From assembly GCA_023246555.1 (NCBI GenBank), contig JAHFIC010000002.1, forward strand, positions 1 through 49,063: a stretch of 49,063 nt of DNA, read 5' to 3'. The notes under the pieces were generated by a model. The model saw nothing but the letters and a program-made list of their open reading frames with translations. It searched no databases and had not been told where the DNA came from. Positions 331 through 22,441 of this stretch are shown here, one piece after another; within the stretch, counting starts at the first letter, position 1, and each line of letters starts with the position of its first letter. A program made the translations under genes and the position numbers. The stretch comes from Candidatus Magasanikiibacteriota bacterium (lineage in GTDB: Bacteria; Patescibacteriota; Patescibacteriia; Magasanikbacterales; UBA922).

Positions 331-388
331 CTATTTTCTCCCGCCCTTGGCGGGACCCCGCCTACTGGCGGTGGTACTCTCTACTTTC
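331..388. repeat. 58-nt double-hairpin element, copy A (forms the pyrC C-terminal tail and stop codon)
   Basis: CTATTTTCTCCCGCCCTTGGCGGGACCCCGCCTACTGGCGGTGGTACTCTCTACTTTC. About 85% identical to 6740-6797. Confidence 0.85.
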
Positions 389-1512
389 TTACCACGTAAG
401 ACAGTGTATGCGGGCCATCCGACAAGTTCCCATCCTTCAAACGGCGACCAGCCGCACTTTGTTTTGAATGTACTGCCACGGACAGGACGTACGGTATTCA
501 TGTCGACGACAACCGTATCGTCATTTGAGGGTAGGTCAAAAAATTTTTCGGCATTTGTTCTCGTCACTGCCATGAATCGATCGAGTGTGAGTTTTCCATC
601 GCGCACCGCCGTGAGCAGAAGTGGCAGGAGCGTCTCAATGCCTGGGACGCCCGAAGGCGCTTTCCCGTAAGGTTGGCCTTTTTCTTCGAGCGTGTGCGGG
701 GCATGGTCGGTGCCAATGGTATCAATCGTACCATCCATGAGTCCTTCCCACAACGCGGCTTGGTCTTCGGGTGTGCGAAGCGGCGGATTCATCTGCGCTT
801 TCGTGCCAAGTGTTTCGTAGGCAGATTCATTCAAGAAGAGATGATGTGGCGTCGTTTCGAGTGCAATCGTGACGCCATCATGTTTTGCCTGGCGAATGAG
901 TGCTACCTCTTCTTTTGTCGATGCATGGAGGATATACAGTTTCGTGCCGTATTTTTTCCCCAGAGCAATGGCTTTTTTCATTGCGGTGATTGCCGCTTCA
1001 CGGCCGCGAATGCGCGAATGAACGCGAACATTGGTAAGCGACTCCGGCGATAGGGATGCCTTCAGGTTTTGCATGATTTTTTCGTCTTCCGCGTGTACGG
1101 CGACAATGGTGCCGAGGCGTGCGGCAGTGTGGCACACCTCTTCAAACGCGGTGTCATTGTCCATAAGTAGGTCCCCAGTGCTTTGTCCCAAAAATACTTT
1201 GATGCCGATATATCCGCCACGAGCGTTTTCAATTTCAGAAACAGTTTTTTCCGAAGCGCCGAGATAGAGTCCGTACCGCAGGGGGATGCCCACTTCGGCC
1301 AGCTGGGCGTCAATAAGGCGTTTTTTTTCTTCGAGTCGTTCCTTGGTCGTACACGCTGGATTATTATTCGGCATGTCGAGGACCGTCGTCACGCCTCCGG
1401 CAATCGCGGCCGCGGCGCCCGTCCGCCAGTCTTCCTTATGCTCGCCGCCGGGGACACGAAAATGAACATGCGGATCGATGAGTGCGGGGAGGGTAAGGAG
1501 AGCCGAGCTCAT
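331..1512 (-). CDS. pyrC: dihydroorotase
   Basis: Carries the LIDPHVHFR metal-binding motif and amidohydrolase-fold length. The preferred start at 1512 forms an ATGA overlap with the pyrI stop; the longest ORF would start at 1575. The last 19 codons and the TAG stop come from a repeat element (see findings). Confidence 0.9.
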   Translation of the reverse strand: MSSALLTLPALIDPHVHFRVPGGEHKEDWRTGAAAAIAGGVTTVLDMPNNNPACTTKERLEEKKRLIDAQLAEVGIPLRYGLYLGASEKTVSEIENARGGYIGIKVFLGQSTGDLLMDNDTAFEEVCHTAARLGTIVAVHAEDEKIMQNLKASLSPESLTNVRVHSRIRGREAAITAMKKAIALGKKYGTKLYILHASTKEEVALIRQAKHDGVTIALETTPHHLFLNESAYETLGTKAQMNPPLRTPEDQAALWEGLMDGTIDTIGTDHAPHTLEEKGQPYGKAPSGVPGIETLLPLLLTAVRDGKLTLDRFMAVTRTNAEKFFDLPSNDDTVVVDMNTVRPVRGSTFKTKCGWSPFEGWELVGWPAYTVLRGKKVESTTASRRGPAKGGRK

Positions 1513-1991
1513 ATACTGTTTGATCTCCGGATAAGCTCCTCTTGAGAGAATTTTTTTTCGCAATATCGACAACACAGCCAGAGATCTTTTTTTGCTTTGA
1601 TGGTCATGAAAGAGACCGTCATCGATTCATGATTCGTGATACAACTTGGATTGGGACACGGAAATAGCCGTTCAATGAGATCCGGCACTTCGACATGAAA
1701 TTTTTTGACGACTGCGTATTGCTTGATGATATTGATGGTCGCCTGTGGCGCGAGAATAGCAACTCGATTAACATCGTCTTTGGAGAGTTCAATTCCTTCA
1801 ACCTTCACCAAATCCTTGAGCGGCATTTTTTTACTTGGCAAATTGAGTCCTACCGTCACTTGTCGATGCTCTGCCGGCAATCGAAGAAGACGGATAATAT
1901 CAAGAGCATGACCGGCCGTTATGTGATCAATGACCGTTCCATTTTTTATGGCGGCGACAGAAAGAACCGCCTTATTTTTTGTTGTGGGCAT
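1509..1991 (-). CDS. pyrI: aspartate carbamoyltransferase regulatory chain
   Basis: VAAIKNGTVIDHI N-terminal motif and a C-terminal zinc domain (CPNPSCIT...CRYC). Sits directly after pyrB. Confidence 0.9.
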   Translation of the reverse strand: MPTTKNKAVLSVAAIKNGTVIDHITAGHALDIIRLLRLPAEHRQVTVGLNLPSKKMPLKDLVKVEGIELSKDDVNRVAILAPQATINIIKQYAVVKKFHVEVPDLIERLFPCPNPSCITNHESMTVSFMTIKAKKDLWLCCRYCEKKFSQEELIRRSNSI

Positions 1992-1996
1992 ATGGT

Positions 1997-2917
1997 TTAG
2001 AGTTTTCCTAACACTAAGCCAAGGAGAGCTTGGCGTATGTAGAGACCATTTTTTGCTTGTTCAAAATAGTAGGCGTATGGCGTTTGGTCGATTTGTGTAT
2101 CCATTTCGTACACCCGCGGCATGATATGGAGAATGCGCAAACTTTTTTTCGCATTCACCAGCGCAGATGTTTTAAGAAAAAAGGCATGCTTCAGTCCTTC
2201 GTATTCCAGCCGGTCGCTGAAGCGTTCTTCCTGCATACGGATCAGATAGAGAATATCCAACTTGGGGATGAGCCCCTCAAAATTTTCATGAAGAGAAAAT
2301 TTTATTTGGTGATATTTGAGCTCATCGCGAAATGCGTCTGGCAGTTGGACCGCTTCTGGCGCCACAAAATACAAACGAACGGAAAAATGTTTGAGTATTT
2401 GGACCAATGAGTGGATCCCTCGGCCGTATTTGAGATCGCCAACAATCGCAATCTGGAGACCATCCACCTTTTTTTGGCATGCTTTGATGGTATAAAGATC
2501 GATCAGCGCTTGTGTGGGGTGCTGGTTGCCGCCATCACCGGCATTGATGACGGGAATATCCACGGCTTCAGCGGCTCGTCGCGCCGCGCCTTCAAGATGG
2601 TGCCGGATAACAATGGCATCCGCATACTGGCTGACGATTTTTGTGGTGTCCGCGAGAGTTTCGCCTTTTTTTGTGGACGTGACACTCGGGTCGGCAAAGC
2701 CAATGACAGAACCACCGAGGCGGAGCATCGCCGTTTCAAAGGAAAGTCTGGTTCGAGTTGATGGTTCAAAAAAGCAGCTCCCGAGGACTCGTCCGTTCAG
2801 AATCGCCGGTTTTGGCTGCCTCTTTGATGCCTCTGCGACAGAAAGCACATGAAGAATGTCTTTCTTGGAAAGGTCATTCATTGACAGGATATCTCGATTT
2901 TTCCATTGATCGTGCAT
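1997..2917 (-). CDS. pyrB: aspartate carbamoyltransferase catalytic chain
   Basis: FFEPSTRTRLSFE signature and an HPTQ motif; 306 aa. Confidence 0.95.
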   Translation of the reverse strand: MHDQWKNRDILSMNDLSKKDILHVLSVAEASKRQPKPAILNGRVLGSCFFEPSTRTRLSFETAMLRLGGSVIGFADPSVTSTKKGETLADTTKIVSQYADAIVIRHHLEGAARRAAEAVDIPVINAGDGGNQHPTQALIDLYTIKACQKKVDGLQIAIVGDLKYGRGIHSLVQILKHFSVRLYFVAPEAVQLPDAFRDELKYHQIKFSLHENFEGLIPKLDILYLIRMQEERFSDRLEYEGLKHAFFLKTSALVNAKKSLRILHIMPRVYEMDTQIDQTPYAYYFEQAKNGLYIRQALLGLVLGKL

Positions 2918-2923
2918 AGGGGG

Positions 2924-5900
2924 TTATGATTGAAATTGCATAAACTCCTGCCATGATACCACAGAGATATTTTTTTCACGAAGCGTTGCTAGGCATTTCA
3001 AAAAAACTTCGGCAAATTGGGCATTGGTAATGAGCGGGATGTGATGGTCGATGGCACGGCGGCGGATCAAATAGCCATCGGTTTCGTGACGTCGCGTATC
3101 GTGTCTTGGAATGTTCACGATAAGGTCTATCGTTCGGTTCTCAATCGCGGTGGTAATATTCGGCTCAATTTCATCGCTGGCTTTAAACAAACATCTGGAT
3201 CCAATGCCGTGCGCTGACAAGACATCGTGGGTGCCCTCGGTGGCAGAAATATCCCAGCCGTTTTCTTCCAGTACGCGTATGAGCGGCACAAATTTTTCTT
3301 TCTCGTCACCTATTGAAACAAAAATGCGTTTTTTGGCGATGTGCTGTTCGGTCGCGAGCCAGGCAAGAAAAAACGCTTCTCCATAATTTTTTCCGATACA
3401 CGCGACTTCTCCGGTAGACGCCATCTCGACTCCAGCGATTGGATCTGAACCCTTCAGGCGTTGATAGGAAAATTGCGGCATTTTGACCCCGACATGGGAA
3501 AGCTCAAGCGTTTCATATGCAGGGGTGTCCGGCATGGATTTTTCGAGAAGCAAGCGGGTGGCAATATCGATGAAGTTGTGCCCCGTGACTTTTGAAACAA
3601 AAGGAAATGACCGTGACGCTCGAAGATTGCATTCGATCACTTTGAGGTCATGGTCTTTTGCAAGGAATTGAATATTAAACGGGCCAGTGACGTGAAGCGC
3701 TCGAACGATCCGCGCGGTAATCGCCTTGGCCCGGCGGATCGTTTCCAAATAGAGCCGTTGGGGAGGAAGAACAATCGTTGCATCCCCCGAGTGCACTCCG
3801 GCATGCTCGACGTGTTCAGAAATAGCTTGAATGACCACACTGCCATTGTTCGCTACTCCATCGATATCGAGTTCTTTTGCTTTGGTGATAAATTTTGAAA
3901 TGACGACCGGATGATCGGGCGAAAGTGTTGTTGCCGTATTGATGTAGGCGGTCAACTCCTCTTCAGAATACACCACATTCATTGCGGCGCCGGAAAGGAC
4001 GTACGATGGTCGCACGAGTACCGGATACCCGACCCGTGTGGAGAAGGCCTTAGCTCGAGGGAGAGTCGTTGCTTCCTCCCATGACGGCTGATCAATGTTC
4101 AAAGTAGTGAGAAGCGTGGAGAATACTTTTCTGTTTTCAGCTCGATCAATATTCTGTCCGGTTGTTCCGAGGATAGTATAGCCGTGTTTCGAAAGCGGCA
4201 AGGCAAGTGTATTTGCAATTTGTCCTCCCACAGAGACGATAATCCCCTTTGCCTGTTCAGCATCGGCAATATCTTGTATTCGCTCCAGCGTTAATTCTTC
4301 AAAATAGAGCCGGTCGGATTCATCATAATCAGTTGAAACCGTTTCGGGGTTGGAGTTGATGATGATCGTAGTTTCTTGAAGCGAACGTAGTGTCCTTGCG
4401 GTGTTGACAGCGCACCAATCAAACTCCACGGATGAGCCAATACAATATGGTCCGGAGCCGAGGACAATTATCGGCCGTTTTTTTGCGGGTGCAGAATCAT
4501 TGGTTTCACCATGATAGGTCGTGTATAAGTAATTTGTTTCGGCAGGAAACTCACCGGCAAGTGTATCAATATGCTTTACGACGGGCTGAATACCTAGGGT
4601 GATTCGGCGTTTTCGTATCGTGTCTTCGGTCAGATGTTTGATTCTTCCAATCGTTTTGTCAGAAAAGCCCATACACTTCGCGTTTCGGAACATGTCCGGA
4701 GTCAGCGCGTGTTTTTTCATCGCGTGTTTCGCCACGGCGATATTTTTTATGTGATACAGAAACCATCGGTCAATATGCGAAAGCCGGTGCGCGTGCTCGA
4801 CATCTCCGCCGCGCATAAAAAATTCCGCAAGAGCAAAAAGCCGGCGGTCAGTGGCTTCTCGGACCTCTTCTTCGTAGTTTGGGATCTGATGGGGATATTC
4901 TGTCACACCATCGGCGCCAATGTTGAGCATTCGTACCGCTTTTTGAAGGGCCTCGGGAAATGACCGTCCAATTCCCATCACTTCACCAACACTTTTCATT
5001 TCAGAACCGATACGTCGATCTGCGGATTTAAATTTTGTCAGATCCCAGCGCGGAATTTTCACCACAAGGTAATCAAGCGCGGGCTCAAAAAAGGCGCTGG
5101 TTTTTTTTGTGATTGCATTTTTGAGCTCATACAGACGGTAGCCAAGCGCGAGTTTCGCTGCCACAAAGGCAAGCGGATAGCCCGTGGCCTTGGACGCGAG
5201 GGCGGACGACCGAGAGAGCCGCGCGTTGATTTCAATCACGCGGTAGTCTCCATTTTTTGGGTTGAGCGCGTACTGGATATTGCACTCCCCGACAATGCCT
5301 AAGGCTCTGGCAGTGCGCAACGCAACCTCACGGAGCATGTGATATTCGGCATTCGTGAGTGTCTGCGATGGGGCGACAACAATACTCTCGCCCGTATGGA
5401 TCCCCATAGGATCCATATTTTCCATATTGCAGACGGTTATGGCATTATCATCGCAATCCCTCACAATTTCATATTCAATTTCTTTCCAACCACCAAGGTA
5501 TTCCTCGATCAATATTTGTGGAGCGCCCGCCAATGCCTCACCCGCCCGGTGTTTTAGTGCTTGCGGATCAAGGATTTTTCCTGATCCTAAGCCCCCAAGA
5601 GAGTATCCAGATCTCATCATAATGGGGTAGCCGATTTTTTGTGCGGCAAAAAGCGCCTCTTGAATCGTGGTTACAGCAATGCTTCTCGGTGTTGCGACAT
5701 CGATTTTTTTTAGGTATTGCTTGAAGAGTTCTCGGTCCTCGGTGCGTTTCATTGCGTCAATCGGAGTCCCAAGGACTGATACATGATATTTTTTTAGCAC
5801 CCCACTCTCTGCTAGCGCAAGTCCAAGGTTGAGCGCGGTTTGTCCGCCAAACCCAAGGAGAATGCCATCCGGCCTTTCTTTGTGAATAATCCGTGTAACT

Positions 5901-6124
5901 GATCCCGGATTGAGCGGTTCAAGGTAGAGTGTGTCTGCCATTGTTTTGTCTGTTTGAACGGTTGCAATATTTGGATTCACGAGCACGGTGCGGACACCCT
6001 CCTCTTTGAGCGCTTTGATGGCTTGAGAGCCAGAGTAATCGAATTCGCCAGCTTGGCCAATGCGTAATCCTCCGGATCCCAAGATCAAAACTTTTTTTGG
6101 AAGATTTTTCCTAAAGGAGGTCAT
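2924..6124 (-). CDS. carB: carbamoyl-phosphate synthase large subunit
   Basis: Duplicated ATP-grasp halves and the N-terminal KKVLILGSGGLRIGQAGEFDYSG motif. The start at 6124 (MTSFRKNLPKKVLILG) matches usual CarB N-terminal spacing; the longest ORF starts at 6145. Confidence 0.95.
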   Translation of the reverse strand: MTSFRKNLPKKVLILGSGGLRIGQAGEFDYSGSQAIKALKEEGVRTVLVNPNIATVQTDKTMADTLYLEPLNPGSVTRIIHKERPDGILLGFGGQTALNLGLALAESGVLKKYHVSVLGTPIDAMKRTEDRELFKQYLKKIDVATPRSIAVTTIQEALFAAQKIGYPIMMRSGYSLGGLGSGKILDPQALKHRAGEALAGAPQILIEEYLGGWKEIEYEIVRDCDDNAITVCNMENMDPMGIHTGESIVVAPSQTLTNAEYHMLREVALRTARALGIVGECNIQYALNPKNGDYRVIEINARLSRSSALASKATGYPLAFVAAKLALGYRLYELKNAITKKTSAFFEPALDYLVVKIPRWDLTKFKSADRRIGSEMKSVGEVMGIGRSFPEALQKAVRMLNIGADGVTEYPHQIPNYEEEVREATDRRLFALAEFFMRGGDVEHAHRLSHIDRWFLYHIKNIAVAKHAMKKHALTPDMFRNAKCMGFSDKTIGRIKHLTEDTIRKRRITLGIQPVVKHIDTLAGEFPAETNYLYTTYHGETNDSAPAKKRPIIVLGSGPYCIGSSVEFDWCAVNTARTLRSLQETTIIINSNPETVSTDYDESDRLYFEELTLERIQDIADAEQAKGIIVSVGGQIANTLALPLSKHGYTILGTTGQNIDRAENRKVFSTLLTTLNIDQPSWEEATTLPRAKAFSTRVGYPVLVRPSYVLSGAAMNVVYSEEELTAYINTATTLSPDHPVVISKFITKAKELDIDGVANNGSVVIQAISEHVEHAGVHSGDATIVLPPQRLYLETIRRAKAITARIVRALHVTGPFNIQFLAKDHDLKVIECNLRASRSFPFVSKVTGHNFIDIATRLLLEKSMPDTPAYETLELSHVGVKMPQFSYQRLKGSDPIAGVEMASTGEVACIGKNYGEAFFLAWLATEQHIAKKRIFVSIGDEKEKFVPLIRVLEENGWDISATEGTHDVLSAHGIGSRCLFKASDEIEPNITTAIENRTIDLIVNIPRHDTRRHETDGYLIRRRAIDHHIPLITNAQFAEVFLKCLATLREKNISVVSWQEFMQFQS

Positions 6125-7199
6125 AAAATTTTTGAAACAGACCATTTGTGTCTGTTGGTCCGGGGGTTGCTTCAGGATGAAATTGAACAGAAAAAAAGGG
6201 GAATGATTTGTGCGCGATGCCCTCGACTGAACCGTCGTTCAAGTTCCTAAAATTGACATACCAGCCGTTCGGCAGGCTTTGTTCATCCACTGCATAGCCG
6301 TGATTTTGGCTGGTGAGATAACACCGTTTCGTTTTTTCGTCTTGGCAGGGCTGATTATGTCCGCGGTGCCCGTAGGGAAGTTTATAGGTTTTTGCGCCGG
6401 CAGCAAGCGCCATGAGCTGGGAACCAAGGCAGATGCCGAAGATCGGTTTCTGATTTTTCATTACCTGTCGAAGAATTGCGATGGTGTCGGTGCATCGTGC
6501 CGGGTCTCCCGGGCCGTTCGAGAGAAGTACACCGTCAAATCTTTCACTGGTATAATCATAGTCATGCGGCACACGGTGAATGGTTACAGGAAATTCCTGT
6601 AGGCATCGGATCATGTTTTCCTTCATGCCACAGTCCACGGCAATGATAATTTTCTTCCCCTTCCCATACATTTTCTTTTTTCGTATGGAAACATTCGCAA
6701 CAAGATTCTCGCGATTCGGATCCAAAAAATTTCTATTTTCTATTTTCTCCCGCCTTGGGTGGGACCCCGTCCGCTGGCGGTGGTGCTTTCTACTTTTTCT
6801 GATAGCGCTCAGCATGACGCCAGATTCACGCAAATGACGGGTGAGCGCGCGCGTGTCGACACCGGTCAGGAGAGGAATACACTCGCGTTTCAGCCAAGAA
6901 AAAAGGGACTCTCGTCCCTCAATGTGGCTCCAGTTCTGACACGCTTCGGAAACGATCACCCCACGTGCATGGATTTTTTTTGATTCCCAGTGTCTTGAAT
7001 CCGGGACTCCATAATTGCCGATCAGCGGGTAGGTAAAAACAAGAATTTGACCTTCGTACGATGGATCGGTCAATGACTCTACATAGCCGGTCATGCCAGT
7101 GTTGAAAACAACCTCACCAAAAACGTCTTTTGGGGTAGTGGGGGAGGAGCCATGAAATGTCATGCCGTCTTTGAGCGTGAGTTCAGCAGGAAACATCAT
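6111..7199 (-). CDS. carA: carbamoyl-phosphate synthase small (glutaminase) subunit
   Basis: N-terminal CarA domain plus a class I glutamine amidotransferase with GICLG...H..E. The interdomain linker carries the 58-nt repeat element, translated as RKSRKHHRQRTGSHPRREKIENRN. Confidence 0.93.
   Translation of the reverse strand: MMFPAELTLKDGMTFHGSSPTTPKDVFGEVVFNTGMTGYVESLTDPSYEGQILVFTYPLIGNYGVPDSRHWESKKIHARGVIVSEACQNWSHIEGRESLFSWLKRECIPLLTGVDTRALTRHLRESGVMLSAIRKSRKHHRQRTGSHPRREKIENRNFLDPNRENLVANVSIRKKKMYGKGKKIIIAVDCGMKENMIRCLQEFPVTIHRVPHDYDYTSERFDGVLLSNGPGDPARCTDTIAILRQVMKNQKPIFGICLGSQLMALAAGAKTYKLPYGHRGHNQPCQDEKTKRCYLTSQNHGYAVDEQSLPNGWYVNFRNLNDGSVEGIAHKSFPFFSVQFHPEATPGPTDTNGLFQKFYDLL
6740..6797. 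repeat. 58-nt double-hairpin element, copy B (inside the carA linker, in a different reading frame)
   Basis: CTATTTTCTCCCGCCTTGGGTGGGACCCCGTCCGCTGGCGGTGGTGCTTTCTACTTTT, preceded by an extra CTATTTT at 6733-6739. Confidence 0.85.
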
Positions 7200-7200
7200 A

Positions 7201-7224
7201 AAAAAATATCCCGCCTAGCGGGAT
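7201..7224 (-). terminator. intrinsic terminator hairpin whose U7 tract runs into the carA ATG (possible attenuator)
   Basis: The minus-strand RNA reads AUCCCGC-UAG-GCGGGAU, then A and U7, then AUG of carA. It sits ~100 nt downstream of the gatB stop. Confidence 0.7.
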
Positions 7225-7320
7225 GAGTGTGTTTCGAAAAACGAAGATGTTTTCATATCCATTTCAGGGTATCAAGCGGGTGGGTGGGCGTCAACTGCAT
7301 TATCCACAGACAGGTCATAT

Positions 7321-8847
7321 TCAAACGATCTTTTCTCGAAGGAGTTTTTCTACCACCAGCGGATCTGCAGTGCCTTCGCTTTGTCGCATGACCATGCCGA
7401 CCAGAAATTTTAGTACCGGTTCTTTTCCCGATTTCCATTGCGCCACTTGCTCTGGAAATTTTTTGATAATATCATCAACCATAGCCCCCACCGCTCCAGC
7501 ATCACGTATCTGGCCATAGTGCTTTTCTTCCATGATATGCGTGGGATCCATATCTACCCCGGATTCAATCATTTCGAGAAGGATTTTTTGCGCGTTGGTG
7601 GAGTTGACCATATTGGTATAGATGAGCGAAATAAGCTCGGCAAAATTTTCTGGTGATACGCGAAGCGTTCGGATATCCTTTCTGCGCTCTGCGAGAAGTC
7701 CCATGAGTTTTGATGTCATCCAGCCGCCTGCGAGTCGGGCGGCTTTTGTCGTGGTTTCTTTATCCTTTGCTTTGATCCACGCGAAAAGCTCGGACATCAC
7801 GGCATCGGTAAATTCCGCCCATGGGGCATCTTCAGAGAGGAGTCGGGCATCACCGTACGAGAGGCCATACTCATTGTGAAATCGTTCGCGTTTTGCTTGC
7901 GGCAGCTCCGGTATTTTTAAGTCCCCTGCGATAGTAAGCGGATGAAAGGGCGGGATATCTGGTTCAGGAAAATAGCGATAATCAGCGGCATTTTCTTTGG
8001 TCCGTTGAAGAATCGTTTCTTCGTTTTTTTCATCCCAGCCGCGCGTTTGCTGCACCCAAGGTTCTTGTCTTTCAAGCATGCCGATTTGGCGTTTGATTTC
8101 AAAGTCAATCGCTTTTTCTACAGCCCGGAATGACCCCATGTTTTTTATTTCCACCTTTGGTTTCAGGGTATATCCAAGAAGCGGTTTCACGATACCGTCG
8201 ACAATTTCAAACCGTCCAGTGTCTTGCACCGAGACATTGGCTTCACAGCGCATATGCCCTTTTTCCATATCCGCATCAGAGATTTCAAGAGAGCGGAAAA
8301 GAGATCGAAGTTCTTGACAGTATACTTTCGCTTCGAGAGCGCTTTTGAAATCAGGATCGGTGACGATTTCAACAAGCGGCGTTCCAGCGCGATTGAAATC
8401 CACCAGACTAGCGTGAGATGCGTCGTGGATGAGCTTGGCCGTATCCTCTTCAAGATGCGCGCGAGTAATACCAATACGCGCCTCCTCGCGGAGATTGTCG
8501 CCGAGGGGAAAGGAAAGCGTCAGCCAGCCATGTTCAGCGATCGGTTCATCATATTGTGAAATCTGATATCCCTTGGGGAGATCAGGGTAAAAGTAATGCT
8601 TGCGGTCGAATTTTGAAACGTTGTTGATGGTGCAGTTGAGCGCTTTGCCAATCATAACCGTCCACGCGATCGCGGTTTTGTTTGGCGCCGGGAGCGTTCC
8701 TGGATGGGCAAGACAAATTTCACAAATATTGGTATTGGGTTCTTTGAGATCCGGATCATTTTTGCAAGAACAAAACATTTTGCTCTTGGTTTTGAGCTCT
8801 ACATGAACCTCCATGCCGATAATAGGGATGAAAGAAGGCGAGGGCAT
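7321..8847 (-). CDS. gatB: Asp-tRNA(Asn)/Glu-tRNA(Gln) amidotransferase subunit B
   Basis: IGMEVHVELKTKSKMFCSC motif and a GatB/YqeY C-terminal domain; 508 aa. Confidence 0.95.
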   Translation of the reverse strand: MPSPSFIPIIGMEVHVELKTKSKMFCSCKNDPDLKEPNTNICEICLAHPGTLPAPNKTAIAWTVMIGKALNCTINNVSKFDRKHYFYPDLPKGYQISQYDEPIAEHGWLTLSFPLGDNLREEARIGITRAHLEEDTAKLIHDASHASLVDFNRAGTPLVEIVTDPDFKSALEAKVYCQELRSLFRSLEISDADMEKGHMRCEANVSVQDTGRFEIVDGIVKPLLGYTLKPKVEIKNMGSFRAVEKAIDFEIKRQIGMLERQEPWVQQTRGWDEKNEETILQRTKENAADYRYFPEPDIPPFHPLTIAGDLKIPELPQAKRERFHNEYGLSYGDARLLSEDAPWAEFTDAVMSELFAWIKAKDKETTTKAARLAGGWMTSKLMGLLAERRKDIRTLRVSPENFAELISLIYTNMVNSTNAQKILLEMIESGVDMDPTHIMEEKHYGQIRDAGAVGAMVDDIIKKFPEQVAQWKSGKEPVLKFLVGMVMRQSEGTADPLVVEKLLREKIV

Positions 8848-21320: not shown

Positions 21321-22441
21321 GACGCCCGCCCATGCGGATTTTTACCACGACAATTAATGTTTTCCGTTTTCATGATTGGTTTCTTTCTGCGGTTGCCTTT
21401 CTGCTTGTTGCTGTTGGATTTGCGGCAATTTATAGCGTTGATTTGTCACGTGGCTCGTCTGACAAGCTGGTGTATTTTCCTCGGCAATTTATTGCCTTCC
21501 TGCTGGGTATGGTTTTTTTATTTATCGGCGGAAGCGTGCATCGCTCATTGTACCAGGCGCTTGTCCGCCCGCTTTCTTTTGTCGCGGGCATTCTCCTTGT
21601 CGCTGTCCTTTTTTTCGGAGAGACGATTCGTGGTACGACTGGTTGGTTCGTTTTGGGTTCATTGGGATCGTTTCAACCGGCTGAGTTTGCAAAAGTTGCA
21701 CTCATTCTATCTTTCGGGGCATTGCTGCTTCGCATAGGGCGAAGATTTGATTCGTTTCAATTTCTTTTTGCGAGCGGCATCTTGAGCCTTTTCTTTGCGG
21801 GACTGATTTTACTTCAACCTGACCTTGGTTCTGCCGCGATCATGATGGGCCTCTGGATTGGCATGCTTCTCGCCGCCACAAAACAAAAGCGTTATGTGCT
21901 GTTGGCGGTAGCTGGACTTGCTGTGGCCATGCTGGTCGGGTGGTTTTTTCTGTTTCAACCGTATCAGCGGGAACGGTTTTTAACATTTCTTCAGCCGGAA
22001 CGCGATCCACTGGGCGCTGGGTACAATGTCACGCAATCCATCATTGCGGTCGGTGCAGGACGGATTTTTGGCAGGGGATTGGGATTCGGTTCTCAAAGCC
22101 AGCTGCGATTTTTGCCAGAAGCGCAGACAGATTTTATTTTTTCTGTTATTGCTGAAGAACTCGGATTTATGGGGGCCTTCTTTGTCTTGGTGCTGTACGC
22201 GCTCCTATTGTATCGGCTGTTGACGCTTGCGCGCCGGTGCCAAGATGATTTTAGCGCCTATACGGTGGTTGGCGTTGCCTGGTTGTTTTTTATCCACATT
22301 ATTCTGAATATCGGCGCCACCATAGGCCTCCTTCCCATCACTGGAGTGACACTGCCATTTTTAAGCTACGGCGGGTCCTCACTCCTTATCAATTTTTTTC
22401 TCCTTGGTATTGTGCAGAGTGTTTCCCGATCCAACTCTTGA
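21317..22441 (+). CDS. SEDS-family peptidoglycan polymerase (FtsW/RodA)
   Basis: Protein with about 10 TM segments carrying PDLGSA, TDFIFSVIAEELGF and LPFLSYGGSS motifs. Confidence 0.9.
   Translation: MRRPPMRIFTTTINVFRFHDWFLSAVAFLLVAVGFAAIYSVDLSRGSSDKLVYFPRQFIAFLLGMVFLFIGGSVHRSLYQALVRPLSFVAGILLVAVLFFGETIRGTTGWFVLGSLGSFQPAEFAKVALILSFGALLLRIGRRFDSFQFLFASGILSLFFAGLILLQPDLGSAAIMMGLWIGMLLAATKQKRYVLLAVAGLAVAMLVGWFFLFQPYQRERFLTFLQPERDPLGAGYNVTQSIIAVGAGRIFGRGLGFGSQSQLRFLPEAQTDFIFSVIAEELGFMGAFFVLVLYALLLYRLLTLARRCQDDFSAYTVVGVAWLFFIHIILNIGATIGLLPITGVTLPFLSYGGSSLLINFFLLGIVQSVSRSNS

Follow-up and report, generated by a model that had tools for sequence, protein, structure and literature searches.

The leader described here lies between gatB and carA of a Candidatus Magasanikiibacteriota bacterium (contig JAHFIC010000002.1 of assembly GCA_023246555.1), and its closest described counterparts are the pyrBI operon and the rph-pyrE gene pair of Escherichia coli and Salmonella. 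In pyrBI, a promoter and a short leader open reading frame (ORF), pyrL, precede a terminator that is placed just before the first structural gene, and the translating ribosome acts as the antiterminator, with neither a regulatory protein nor an antiterminator hairpin being involved. pyrL has a Shine-Dalgarno (SD) sequence and defined U-rich pause sites. In rph-pyrE, the terminator directly precedes the pyrimidine gene and a full-size gene with an SD, rph, ends a few nucleotides (nt) before its hairpin, the folding of which is blocked by a closely following ribosome; the distance between the stop codon and the hairpin matters in this attenuator (PMC2784333). The pyrL leader ORF measures 135 base pairs (bp) (PMC4824070). 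In E. coli, the terminating ribosome represses almost fully a terminator that lies a few bp past a stop codon: when the stop was shifted towards the tR2 terminator, with 5 instead of 28 bp between them, termination fell from about 90% to less than 10%, and no effect was left beyond about 27 nt. In the first 100 bp of a coding region, terminators are efficient except where a pause allows the ribosome to close up on the polymerase, as happens in pyrBI (PMC4824070). The carAB operon of Pseudomonas aeruginosa is reported to have a leader peptide, and its pyrimidine control is attributed to attenuation (PMC4997734, citing Kwon et al. 1994). We propose, by analogy with these systems, that the gatB-carA leader is a ribosome-gated attenuator of the pyrBI/pyrE kind, a reading to which we assign a probability of roughly 0.6.

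The window, i.e. the whole stretch of DNA that was analysed, comprises 49,063 nt (positions 1 to 49,063 of the contig, forward strand). All coordinates are window coordinates and all the leader elements are on the minus strand; G000 denotes the window's own genome, while L and G numbers denote related loci and genomes. gatB, the upstream gene (7321..8847; NCBIfam NF004012, 562 bits), ends with the TGA at 7323-7321, carA, the first gene of the operon (6111..7199; TIGR01368, 449 bits), begins with the ATG at 7199-7197, and the spacer between them (7320-7200) contains all the leader elements. In the direction of transcription, these are a perfect DnaA-box 9-mer, TGTGGATAA (7300..7308; TTATCCACA on the plus strand), which lies 5 nt upstream of a -35 hexamer TTGACG (7289..7294) recognized by sequence and conservation, a spacer of 17 nt (7288-7272) and an extended -10 element TGaTACCCT (7266..7274), in which the hexamer TACCCT occupies 7271-7266. 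Two ATG codons follow in the same frame, at 7262 (3 nt after the -10 hexamer) and at 7256 (9 nt after it). Transcription is predicted to start in the zone 7256..7259, G7259 being the 7th nt past the -10 and A7256 the A of the leader AUG. The original prediction, which was made from the sequence of the window, recognized the leader ORF and let it start at 7262, with 15 codons (MDMKTSSFFETHSSR, 7262..7215); the ORF stands, its start does not. Since the ATG at 7262 is only 3 nt past the -10 hexamer, it is probably not transcribed, and we take 7256 as the likely start, because a -10-to-ATG distance of 9 nt fits the leaderless-type class of genes discussed below, whereas 3 nt does not. The mini-ORF is thus read as MKTSSFFETHSSR plus TAG, 13 codons at 7215..7256, an open frame that ends at the terminator. 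The leader has a run of five U, and the U-rich stretch UCGUUUUUCG (7235..7244), situated within the ORF, is a candidate pause region sensitive to uridine triphosphate (UTP). The terminator hairpin ATCCCGC-TAG-GCGGGAT (7208..7224; -10.8 kcal/mol) is made up of a 5' arm (7224-7218), a loop that is the leader stop codon itself (TAG, 7217-7215) and a 3' arm GCGGGAT (7214-7208); a single A (7207) separates it from a U7 tract (7200..7206) that abuts the start codon of carA. A re-reading of the sequence upholds what had been stated earlier about the direct succession of hairpin, A, U7 and carA ATG, about the TAG of the short ORF forming the loop, and about the U-rich stretch at 7244-7235.

Taken alone, this sequence exceeds chance only weakly. 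A loose terminator scan gave 22 sites versus 15 ± 3 in shuffles (12 kb), and the local fold energy of the spacer is average (z = 0.01). The -10 element, the hexamer of which matches at only 3 of 6 positions, was missed by a consensus promoter scan. Under strict criteria, 34 intergenic terminators are found genome-wide, among which the one before carA is alone in abutting a co-directional start codon. It is the conservation of the element in related genomes that, in our reading, settles that the terminator is more than a chance structure. The first set consists of the DNA upstream of carA at the 20 loci whose CarA is at least 58% identical; at 16 of them it extends far enough for promoter and ORF to be compared. 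Six further loci, obtained via CarA homologs from other assemblies after the hypothesis had been fixed, served as a hold-out, so that the layout was compared in 22 loci (16 + 6) from two families, and a leader terminator is present in 24 (18 + 6).

A hairpin followed by T7-9 is found within 210 nt upstream of carA in 18 of the 20 first-set loci, with 0-12 nt between the end of the T-run and carA at 11 of these; the hold-out loci have T-runs of 4-7. MAFFT did not align the hairpins in structural register, and base pairs were counted on each fold separately: among the 18 related hairpins there are 13 distinct stem sequences, every one of them fully paired, with energies of -10 to -18 kcal/mol. 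Most stems share the core CCAYCC...GGRTGG, from which those of the window's genus (ATCCCGC) and of L031 (ATACCCCGAC) differ. Farther upstream, an extended -10 of the form TGnTAnnnT (mostly TATACT or TAAACT) is present in 16/16 aligned loci, TTGNNN stands exactly 17 nt before the -10 in 15/16, and a purine occupies the 7th nt past the -10 in 14/16; the promoter is also present in all six hold-out loci. The order common to the 22 loci is a DnaA-type box, the -35, the extended -10, the ATG, the ORF, the hairpin, the T-run and carA. The leaders themselves are unalignable between genera, and their composition is A/C-rich and G-poor (A 41, C 20, G 11, T 28%).

gatB is also found upstream of carA in L002, L021, L030, L031, L051, L052, L055 and L058; elsewhere other genes stand before the module, and at least two of these (in L024 and L057) are furnished with their own terminator. 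In G071 a second complete module lies between carB and pyrB (L046 7574-7760, minus strand; G071:C2). This copy has the box TGTGGATAC, the promoter TTGACC/17 nt/TGaTAAACT, a hairpin identical to that of the carA leader of the same genome and then T7, while its ORF of 31 codons passes through the terminator and over the ATG of pyrB. The module occurs only before carA and pyrB and is therefore tied to pyrimidine synthesis. It is not universal, being missing at the distant loci L028, L032 and L054 (the last labelled Doudnabacteria) and in the genus g25. We also considered the hairpin as a dispersed or mobile terminator and rejected this: its sequence occurs once in the 770-kb genome G000, and CCACCC-N3-6-GGGTGG followed by a T-run is found once per genome in ten relatives, with the pyrB copy of G071 as the exception, whereas the other CCACCC...GGGTGG matches in relatives are without a T-run and within coding DNA. 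On these comparisons, the module as an anatomical unit, i.e. promoter, mini-ORF and hairpin in fixed order and geometry and with a link to pyrimidine synthesis, is well supported and very probably real. Since the spacer has a conserved promoter on the gatB side of the hairpin, the hairpin is best read as a leader terminator and not merely as the terminator of gatB.

At seven of the 24 loci (5/18 in the first set, 2/6 in the hold-out), hairpin repeats amounting to 56-170 nt are inserted between the terminator and carA. The inserts are GC-rich (L003 99-190; L020, L023, L027, L034, L056 and L057), and the last hairpin within them, ATCCGCC-N3-4-GGCGGAT, lies a few nt before carA and resembles the window stem ATCCCGC/GCGGGAT.

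An ORF that opens with an ATG within the first 30 nt past the -10 and reaches the terminator was found in 16/16 first-set and 6/6 hold-out loci. The ATG lies 9-23 nt past the -10, mostly 9-14, and is the first AUG after the predicted start in 15/16 loci, further AUGs, if any, being in the same frame; the ORF has 12-31 codons, mostly 12-21. The first nt of the stop codon is positioned at -8 to +9 with respect to the start of the stem in 14 loci, and in all 22 loci the stop is either from -11 to +10 relative to the stem or beyond the terminator. At L012 and L013 the ORF continues through the hairpin and the T-run and overlaps the start of carA as ATGA or GTGA. The leader ORF and its stop geometry, which had been pointed out in the window alone, are borne out by the relatives, where the order is kept in 22/22 loci with unrelated leader sequences and where the stop-in-loop itself is repeated in L051 and L058, again with different sequences. 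When each leader was shuffled with its composition kept, such an ORF arose in 13% of the trials with a cut-off of -9 nt, which was chosen after the data had been seen, and in 22% with a cut-off of -27 nt, which was taken from published measurements; the chance per locus ranges from 0.11 to 0.22 across shuffles. If the loci are treated as independent, the joint probability for the 16 first-set loci is 3e-16 (-9) to 4e-12 (-27). Each of the six hold-out loci has a single ATG 9-11 nt past the -10 and an ORF of 14-21 codons with a stop from -11 to inside the loop, for which the chance is 0.14-0.20 per locus and the joint probability, on the same assumption of independence, 5e-6 to 5e-5.

As to whether so short an ORF could be translated, the 3' end of the 16S rRNA keeps CCUCC (contig C25), and genome-wide there is no SD enrichment: SD-like motifs accompany 6.3% of the candidate starts versus 6.4% of the internal in-frame ATG/GTG/TTG codons, and none was found at the well-defined starts of carB, pyrB, pyrI, gatB and tmk. 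Promoter-like pairs of -35 and -10 elements located 6-12 nt before the ATG of ORFs of at least 60 codons number 59, as against 11 when the pattern was reversed as a control, and the distances peak at 7-9 nt. Genes of the leaderless or near-leaderless type appear to be common in the genome, rpmH being one example. Because the genome does without SD use and has many leaderless-type genes, the leader AUG can be read as a (near-)leaderless start, and translation of the mini-ORF is plausible.

We propose that transcription would start inside the spacer, at or 1-3 nt before the AUG of the 13-codon mini-ORF, and that about 35 nt later the polymerase would transcribe the terminator, a 7-bp GC-rich hairpin with a U7 tract that ends at the carA AUG. 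By default, the hairpin would form and a transcript of roughly 55-60 nt would be released. A ribosome that has caught up would sit on the UAG in the loop and cover the 5' arm; the hairpin would then be unfolded and the polymerase would enter carA-carB-pyrB-pyrI-pyrC. The race between the two would probably be set by the supply of pyrimidine nucleotides: low UTP, perhaps also low cytidine triphosphate (CTP), would slow the polymerase on the U/C-rich, G-poor leader and so let the ribosome catch up. That UTP, or UTP together with CTP, may be the slowing signal is suggested by the pathway and by analogy. The terminating ribosome may also pass to the carA AUG 15 nt downstream, a non-exclusive second role at a start that has no SD. 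As the geometry equals that of the published stop-terminator cases, we read these leaders as ribosome-gated attenuators, predicted to be off by default and on when the polymerase is slowed. The pyrBI-like attenuator put forward in the original prediction is thereby supported in substance, by the promoter, the 22/22 layout, the duplicate before pyrB and the failure to find PyrR or an antiterminator (see below), but the stop codon's position is nearer to that of rph-pyrE than to that of pyrBI.

Regulators of other classes were sought and not found. G000 has no PyrR homolog (NF003545, which matches the control genomes). Rfam at the gathering threshold finds nothing in the whole window beyond one tRNA elsewhere, and with E up to 10 it yields only sub-threshold noise in 7150-7350, with no PyrR binding site. 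PyrR attenuation was rejected, there being neither a homolog of the protein nor a conserved binding stem-loop. No RNA antiterminator is present in the leader folds, in which the leader together with the 5' arm reaches only -0.2 to -8 kcal/mol; the minimum-energy fold of 7190-7330, which pairs the hairpin with CUGUCUGUGGAU, was discarded, since that segment would precede the predicted start and the fold has z = 0. An amino-acid leader-peptide attenuator of the trp, his or leu kind was likewise dismissed: no codon runs are shared among the 22 leader peptides, an antiterminator is missing, and the Rfam Trp_leader match reaches only 17 bits versus a threshold of 41 bits. Against a reiterative-transcription attenuator of the Bacillus subtilis pyrG type, the predicted start regions (GAUAU, AAUAU, GACAU etc.) have no conserved G-run. 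With PyrR, the Rfam families and an antiterminator fold excluded, the ribosome would be the simplest modulator of the terminator.

Ribosome-gated pyrimidine attenuators form a functional class and not a homology family, and in this sense the module is placed in the same class as pyrBI and rph-pyrE, and probably as the Pseudomonas carAB leader, without being homologous to any of them. What places it there by sequence is a promoter upstream of the terminator, a terminator immediately before the first structural gene, an ORF so placed that its ribosome could cover the terminator, and the lack of any antiterminator or PyrR in the searches made. With rph-pyrE it shares the terminator directly before a pyrimidine gene, an ORF stop within a few nt of the hairpin and, as predicted here, the blocking of the hairpin by a closely following ribosome; unlike rph, the ORF is a (near-)leaderless mini-ORF of 12-21 codons with a promoter of its own, the regulated gene is carA and not pyrE, and there is no sequence homology. 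With pyrBI it has in common the sequence of promoter, short leader ORF and terminator just before the first structural gene, the lack of a regulatory protein or antiterminator hairpin and the role of antiterminator that is predicted for the ribosome; at L012, at L013 and in the pyrB copy of G071 the ORF even runs through the terminator, as pyrL does. It differs from pyrBI in that the ORFs are mostly of 12-21 codons, SD-less and at the 5' end of the predicted transcript, that the stop in the window is in the loop and that U-rich pauses are not universal. The P. aeruginosa leader stands before the same gene, carA, and is reported to make a peptide, as is predicted here, whereas it is gammaproteobacterial and SD-dependent, is subject to extra control by ArgR and has no sequence relation to the module. 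The Bacillus-type attenuators also have a terminator in a pyr operon leader, including before carA or pyrB homologs, but they need PyrR and its binding loop as well as an antiterminator/anti-antiterminator, neither of which was found here. From pyrBI, rph-pyrE and the Pseudomonas leader the module would differ in its very short SD-less (near-)leaderless ORF, in a stop codon that falls within the loop or at the base of the stem, in the U-tract that touches the start codon and in the attached DnaA box.

Several points weigh against ribosome-gated attenuation. The start site, the termination and the translation are all predictions from sequence; the leader peptides are not conserved, and coding is deduced from the open frames alone. 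The loci are phylogenetically related, hence the joint probabilities given above overstate their independence, and the narrower of the two cut-offs was set with the data in view. Sensing of UTP is the weakest link: a U-run of at least three is found in 12/16 leaders and none in 4/16, and the T content peaks only modestly 10-20 nt before the stem (37% versus 23-28%). Moreover, with an ORF of 13 codons, only about 40 nt would be transcribed between the emergence of the AUG and the U-tract, and coupling would need long pauses. The hairpin inserts between terminator and carA could hide a promoter that bypasses the element. Finally, the stem core CCAYCC/GGRTGG is kept in most genera at a CarA identity of only about 60-70%, which exceeds the need of a plain terminator and may point to a binding protein.

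Such a protein, RNA- or DNA-binding, PyrR-like in function and unrelated to PyrR, would read the hairpin or palindrome, and the open frame would be a by-product of the A/C-rich, G-poor leader. The core is kept across genera and families in leaders that are otherwise unalignable, the hairpin is locus-specific and its duplicate before pyrB in G071 is identical, all of which would suit a binding site; but the window's genus and L031 have quite different stems in the same layout, the loops vary freely, there is no PyrR homolog, and the open frame with its single well-placed ATG is far commoner than in composition-matched shuffles. We therefore hold a protein-read hairpin to be unlikely. Somewhat less so, and on the whole still improbable, is an arrangement without any nucleotide sensing, in which a constitutively leaky terminator would allow a fixed low read-through and insulate the operon from gatB, and in which the mini-ORF would be an upstream ORF (uORF) that supplies the SD-less carA with ribosomes, through termination-reinitiation and through the opening of the hairpin beside the AUG. 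The closeness of the T-run to carA (0-12 nt in 11/18 first-set loci), the two ORFs that overlap the start of carA in the classic coupling arrangement (ATGA, GTGA), a genome without SD signals and the leaders without U-runs are what such an arrangement predicts. Reinitiation is unlikely across the gap of 56-170 nt present in 7/24 loci, yet promoter, ORF and terminator are kept there; many genes of the genome start without any uORF, and a fixed terminator behind a strong conserved promoter would be wasteful unless it were modulated.

The plain alternative that was offered together with the original prediction, namely that the hairpin is the gatB terminator with partial read-through and that the ORF and the promoter-like hexamers arose by chance, would be consistent with the lack of any other terminator between gatB and carA in the window, with the common gatB-carA synteny and with the unexceptional local fold (z = 0.01). 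It is strongly disfavoured, to the point of being highly improbable: the hairpin sits 95 nt past the gatB stop, whereas in several other cases in the genome no more than about 30 nt separate a terminator from the preceding gene's stop; the conserved -35/17 nt/extended -10 promoter is interposed between gatB and the hairpin; the module is found behind unrelated genes, at least two of them (L024, L057) having their own terminators, and in G071 it also precedes pyrB; and all 22 loci have the ORF. It is very unlikely, too, that the transcript of roughly 55-60 nt is itself the product, as a small RNA or as the mRNA of a micropeptide, with its place before carA being secondary. Short transcripts have been reported for the carA 5' regions of Pseudomonas syringae (PMC4997734), and leaderless small ORFs are translated in other bacteria (PMC4633059); here, however, neither the peptide nor the sequence of the leader RNA is conserved, the layout alone being so, and the element is always tied to carA or pyrB.

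The promoter of the proposed attenuator has a further component. DnaA acts as a transcription factor at promoter-proximal boxes, such as those of E. coli dnaA, nrdAB and guaBA. The perfect 9-mer TTATCCACA at 7300-7308 on the plus strand, on which the original prediction had only remarked in passing, gains in weight from the relatives: 12/16 related leaders have, in either orientation, a copy of the 9-mer (one mismatch allowed) whose end is 5-11 nt upstream of the -35, the forward boxes standing at 5-7 nt and the reversed ones at 7-11 nt from the -35. By our own estimate, the chance of a box so placed is about 0.7% per locus. In G000, the 9-mer (TGTGGATAA or TTATCCACA) occurs 22 times versus about 6 expected; dnaA is present in the genome with clustered boxes, and the 9-mer clusters beside dnaA/rpmH on contig C39 (e.g. 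C39 5500-5545 and 12950-12990; copies also lie in the window at 22290 and 31917). It is often situated just upstream of -35-like TTGAC hexamers, as before rpmH, a glutamine-synthetase-like gene and greA. Judged by its placement, the box is a conserved part of the predicted promoter, and binding of DnaA to it is plausible. As in DnaA-regulated promoters, a consensus 9-mer adjoins the -35 of a nucleotide-synthesis operon and is kept in relatives, DnaA binding and any effect of it being putative in our case; we know of no description of a DnaA box on the promoter of a pyrimidine (carA) operon. A regulon defined by a DnaA box plus TTGAC was considered for G000 and abandoned, since only five such sites exist (carA, greA, the glutamine-synthetase-like gene, one other and one intragenic), too few to define it.

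One of these sites was inspected for its layout. On the minus strand of G000 contig C26, the PBP-greA spacer has TGTGGATAA, 6 nt, TTGACG and then a hairpin ATTCCGC-TTT-GCGGA with T7, and this terminator lies 8 nt before the greA ATG, a box-promoter-terminator layout like that of carA without the mini-ORF. The greA spacer brings to mind the terminator known from the greA leader of E. coli (GraL; cited in PMC2965389). A wider, tentative reading, which we consider doubtful though possible, is that of a minimal two-input module, not described in print so far, in which the DnaA box would couple the operon to the replication initiator and its state, while the ribosome that terminates on the (near-)leaderless mini-ORF of 12-21 codons, at the foot or loop of the terminator, would gate read-through by pyrimidine supply and deliver ribosomes to the SD-less carA, in Magasanikbacteria-type Patescibacteria and perhaps across the phylum. 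The same tentative reading would have the module portable, as it is duplicated before pyrB in G071 and has a box-promoter-terminator version before greA in G000.

Gene regulation is almost uncharted in the ultra-small, uncultured bacteria of the Candidate Phyla Radiation (Patescibacteria). Most of these are unable to make nucleotides, and a limited literature search found no description of attenuation in this group. The module offers a conserved and experimentally portable cis-element for the few members that are able to. It suggests that the logic of a ribosome chasing the polymerase arose independently in a lineage without SD initiation, and DnaA may have a say in its pyrimidine supply; if the two-input reading is true, transcription-translation coupling would be a working regulatory principle without SD-led initiation. 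In practical terms, the promoter and the terminator may serve as parts, and annotation should treat short ORFs before carA as leader ORFs and the terminator as no operon boundary.

The G000 assembly comprises 770 kb in 56 contigs and is 94.7% complete, and all 240 genomes of the order have 0.6-1.4 Mb. A search for CarA homologs gave 5166 at E ≤ 1e-100, the nearest of which come from sources labelled Patescibacteria group, Candidatus Magasanikbacteria and Candidatus Doudnabacteria; the labels Chlamydiae and Gammaproteobacteria on a few related metagenome-assembled genomes were taken as mislabels. carA is present in only 30 of the 240 genomes and 18 of the 114 genera of the order, G001, of the same genus as G000, being without it; de novo pyrimidine synthesis is thus patchy across the order. 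In the window, carB, pyrB, pyrI and pyrC (331..6145, minus strand, NCBIfam) follow carA as far as the contig reaches; these names, like those of gatB and carA, agree with the earlier annotation, whereas the ORF after pyrC within which the contig ends (1-327, minus strand), earlier called pyrD, has no Pfam match and is unconfirmed as such. pyrE and pyrF, sought as further pyrimidine genes that might have the same leader, were not found in the 94.7%-complete assembly. G239 has the operon carA-carB-pyrB-pyrI-pyrC-(155-amino-acid ORF)-pyrD-pyrK-pyrE-pyrF, which covers the whole uridine monophosphate (UMP) pathway. The ORF of 155 amino acids between its pyrC and pyrD (L045 7498-7965, plus strand) has no NCBIfam or Pfam match. 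An identical segment of 38 nt, ATCACCGGCCACTGGGCCGTTTTTTTGATGCTCATTTC, made up of a hairpin and T7, is found in at least seven contigs of G000 (C4, C27, C34, C42, C49, C53 and C54); no predicted gene follows its copies, which are apparently located at contig ends, and the segment probably marks the border of a repeated element at which the assembly breaks.

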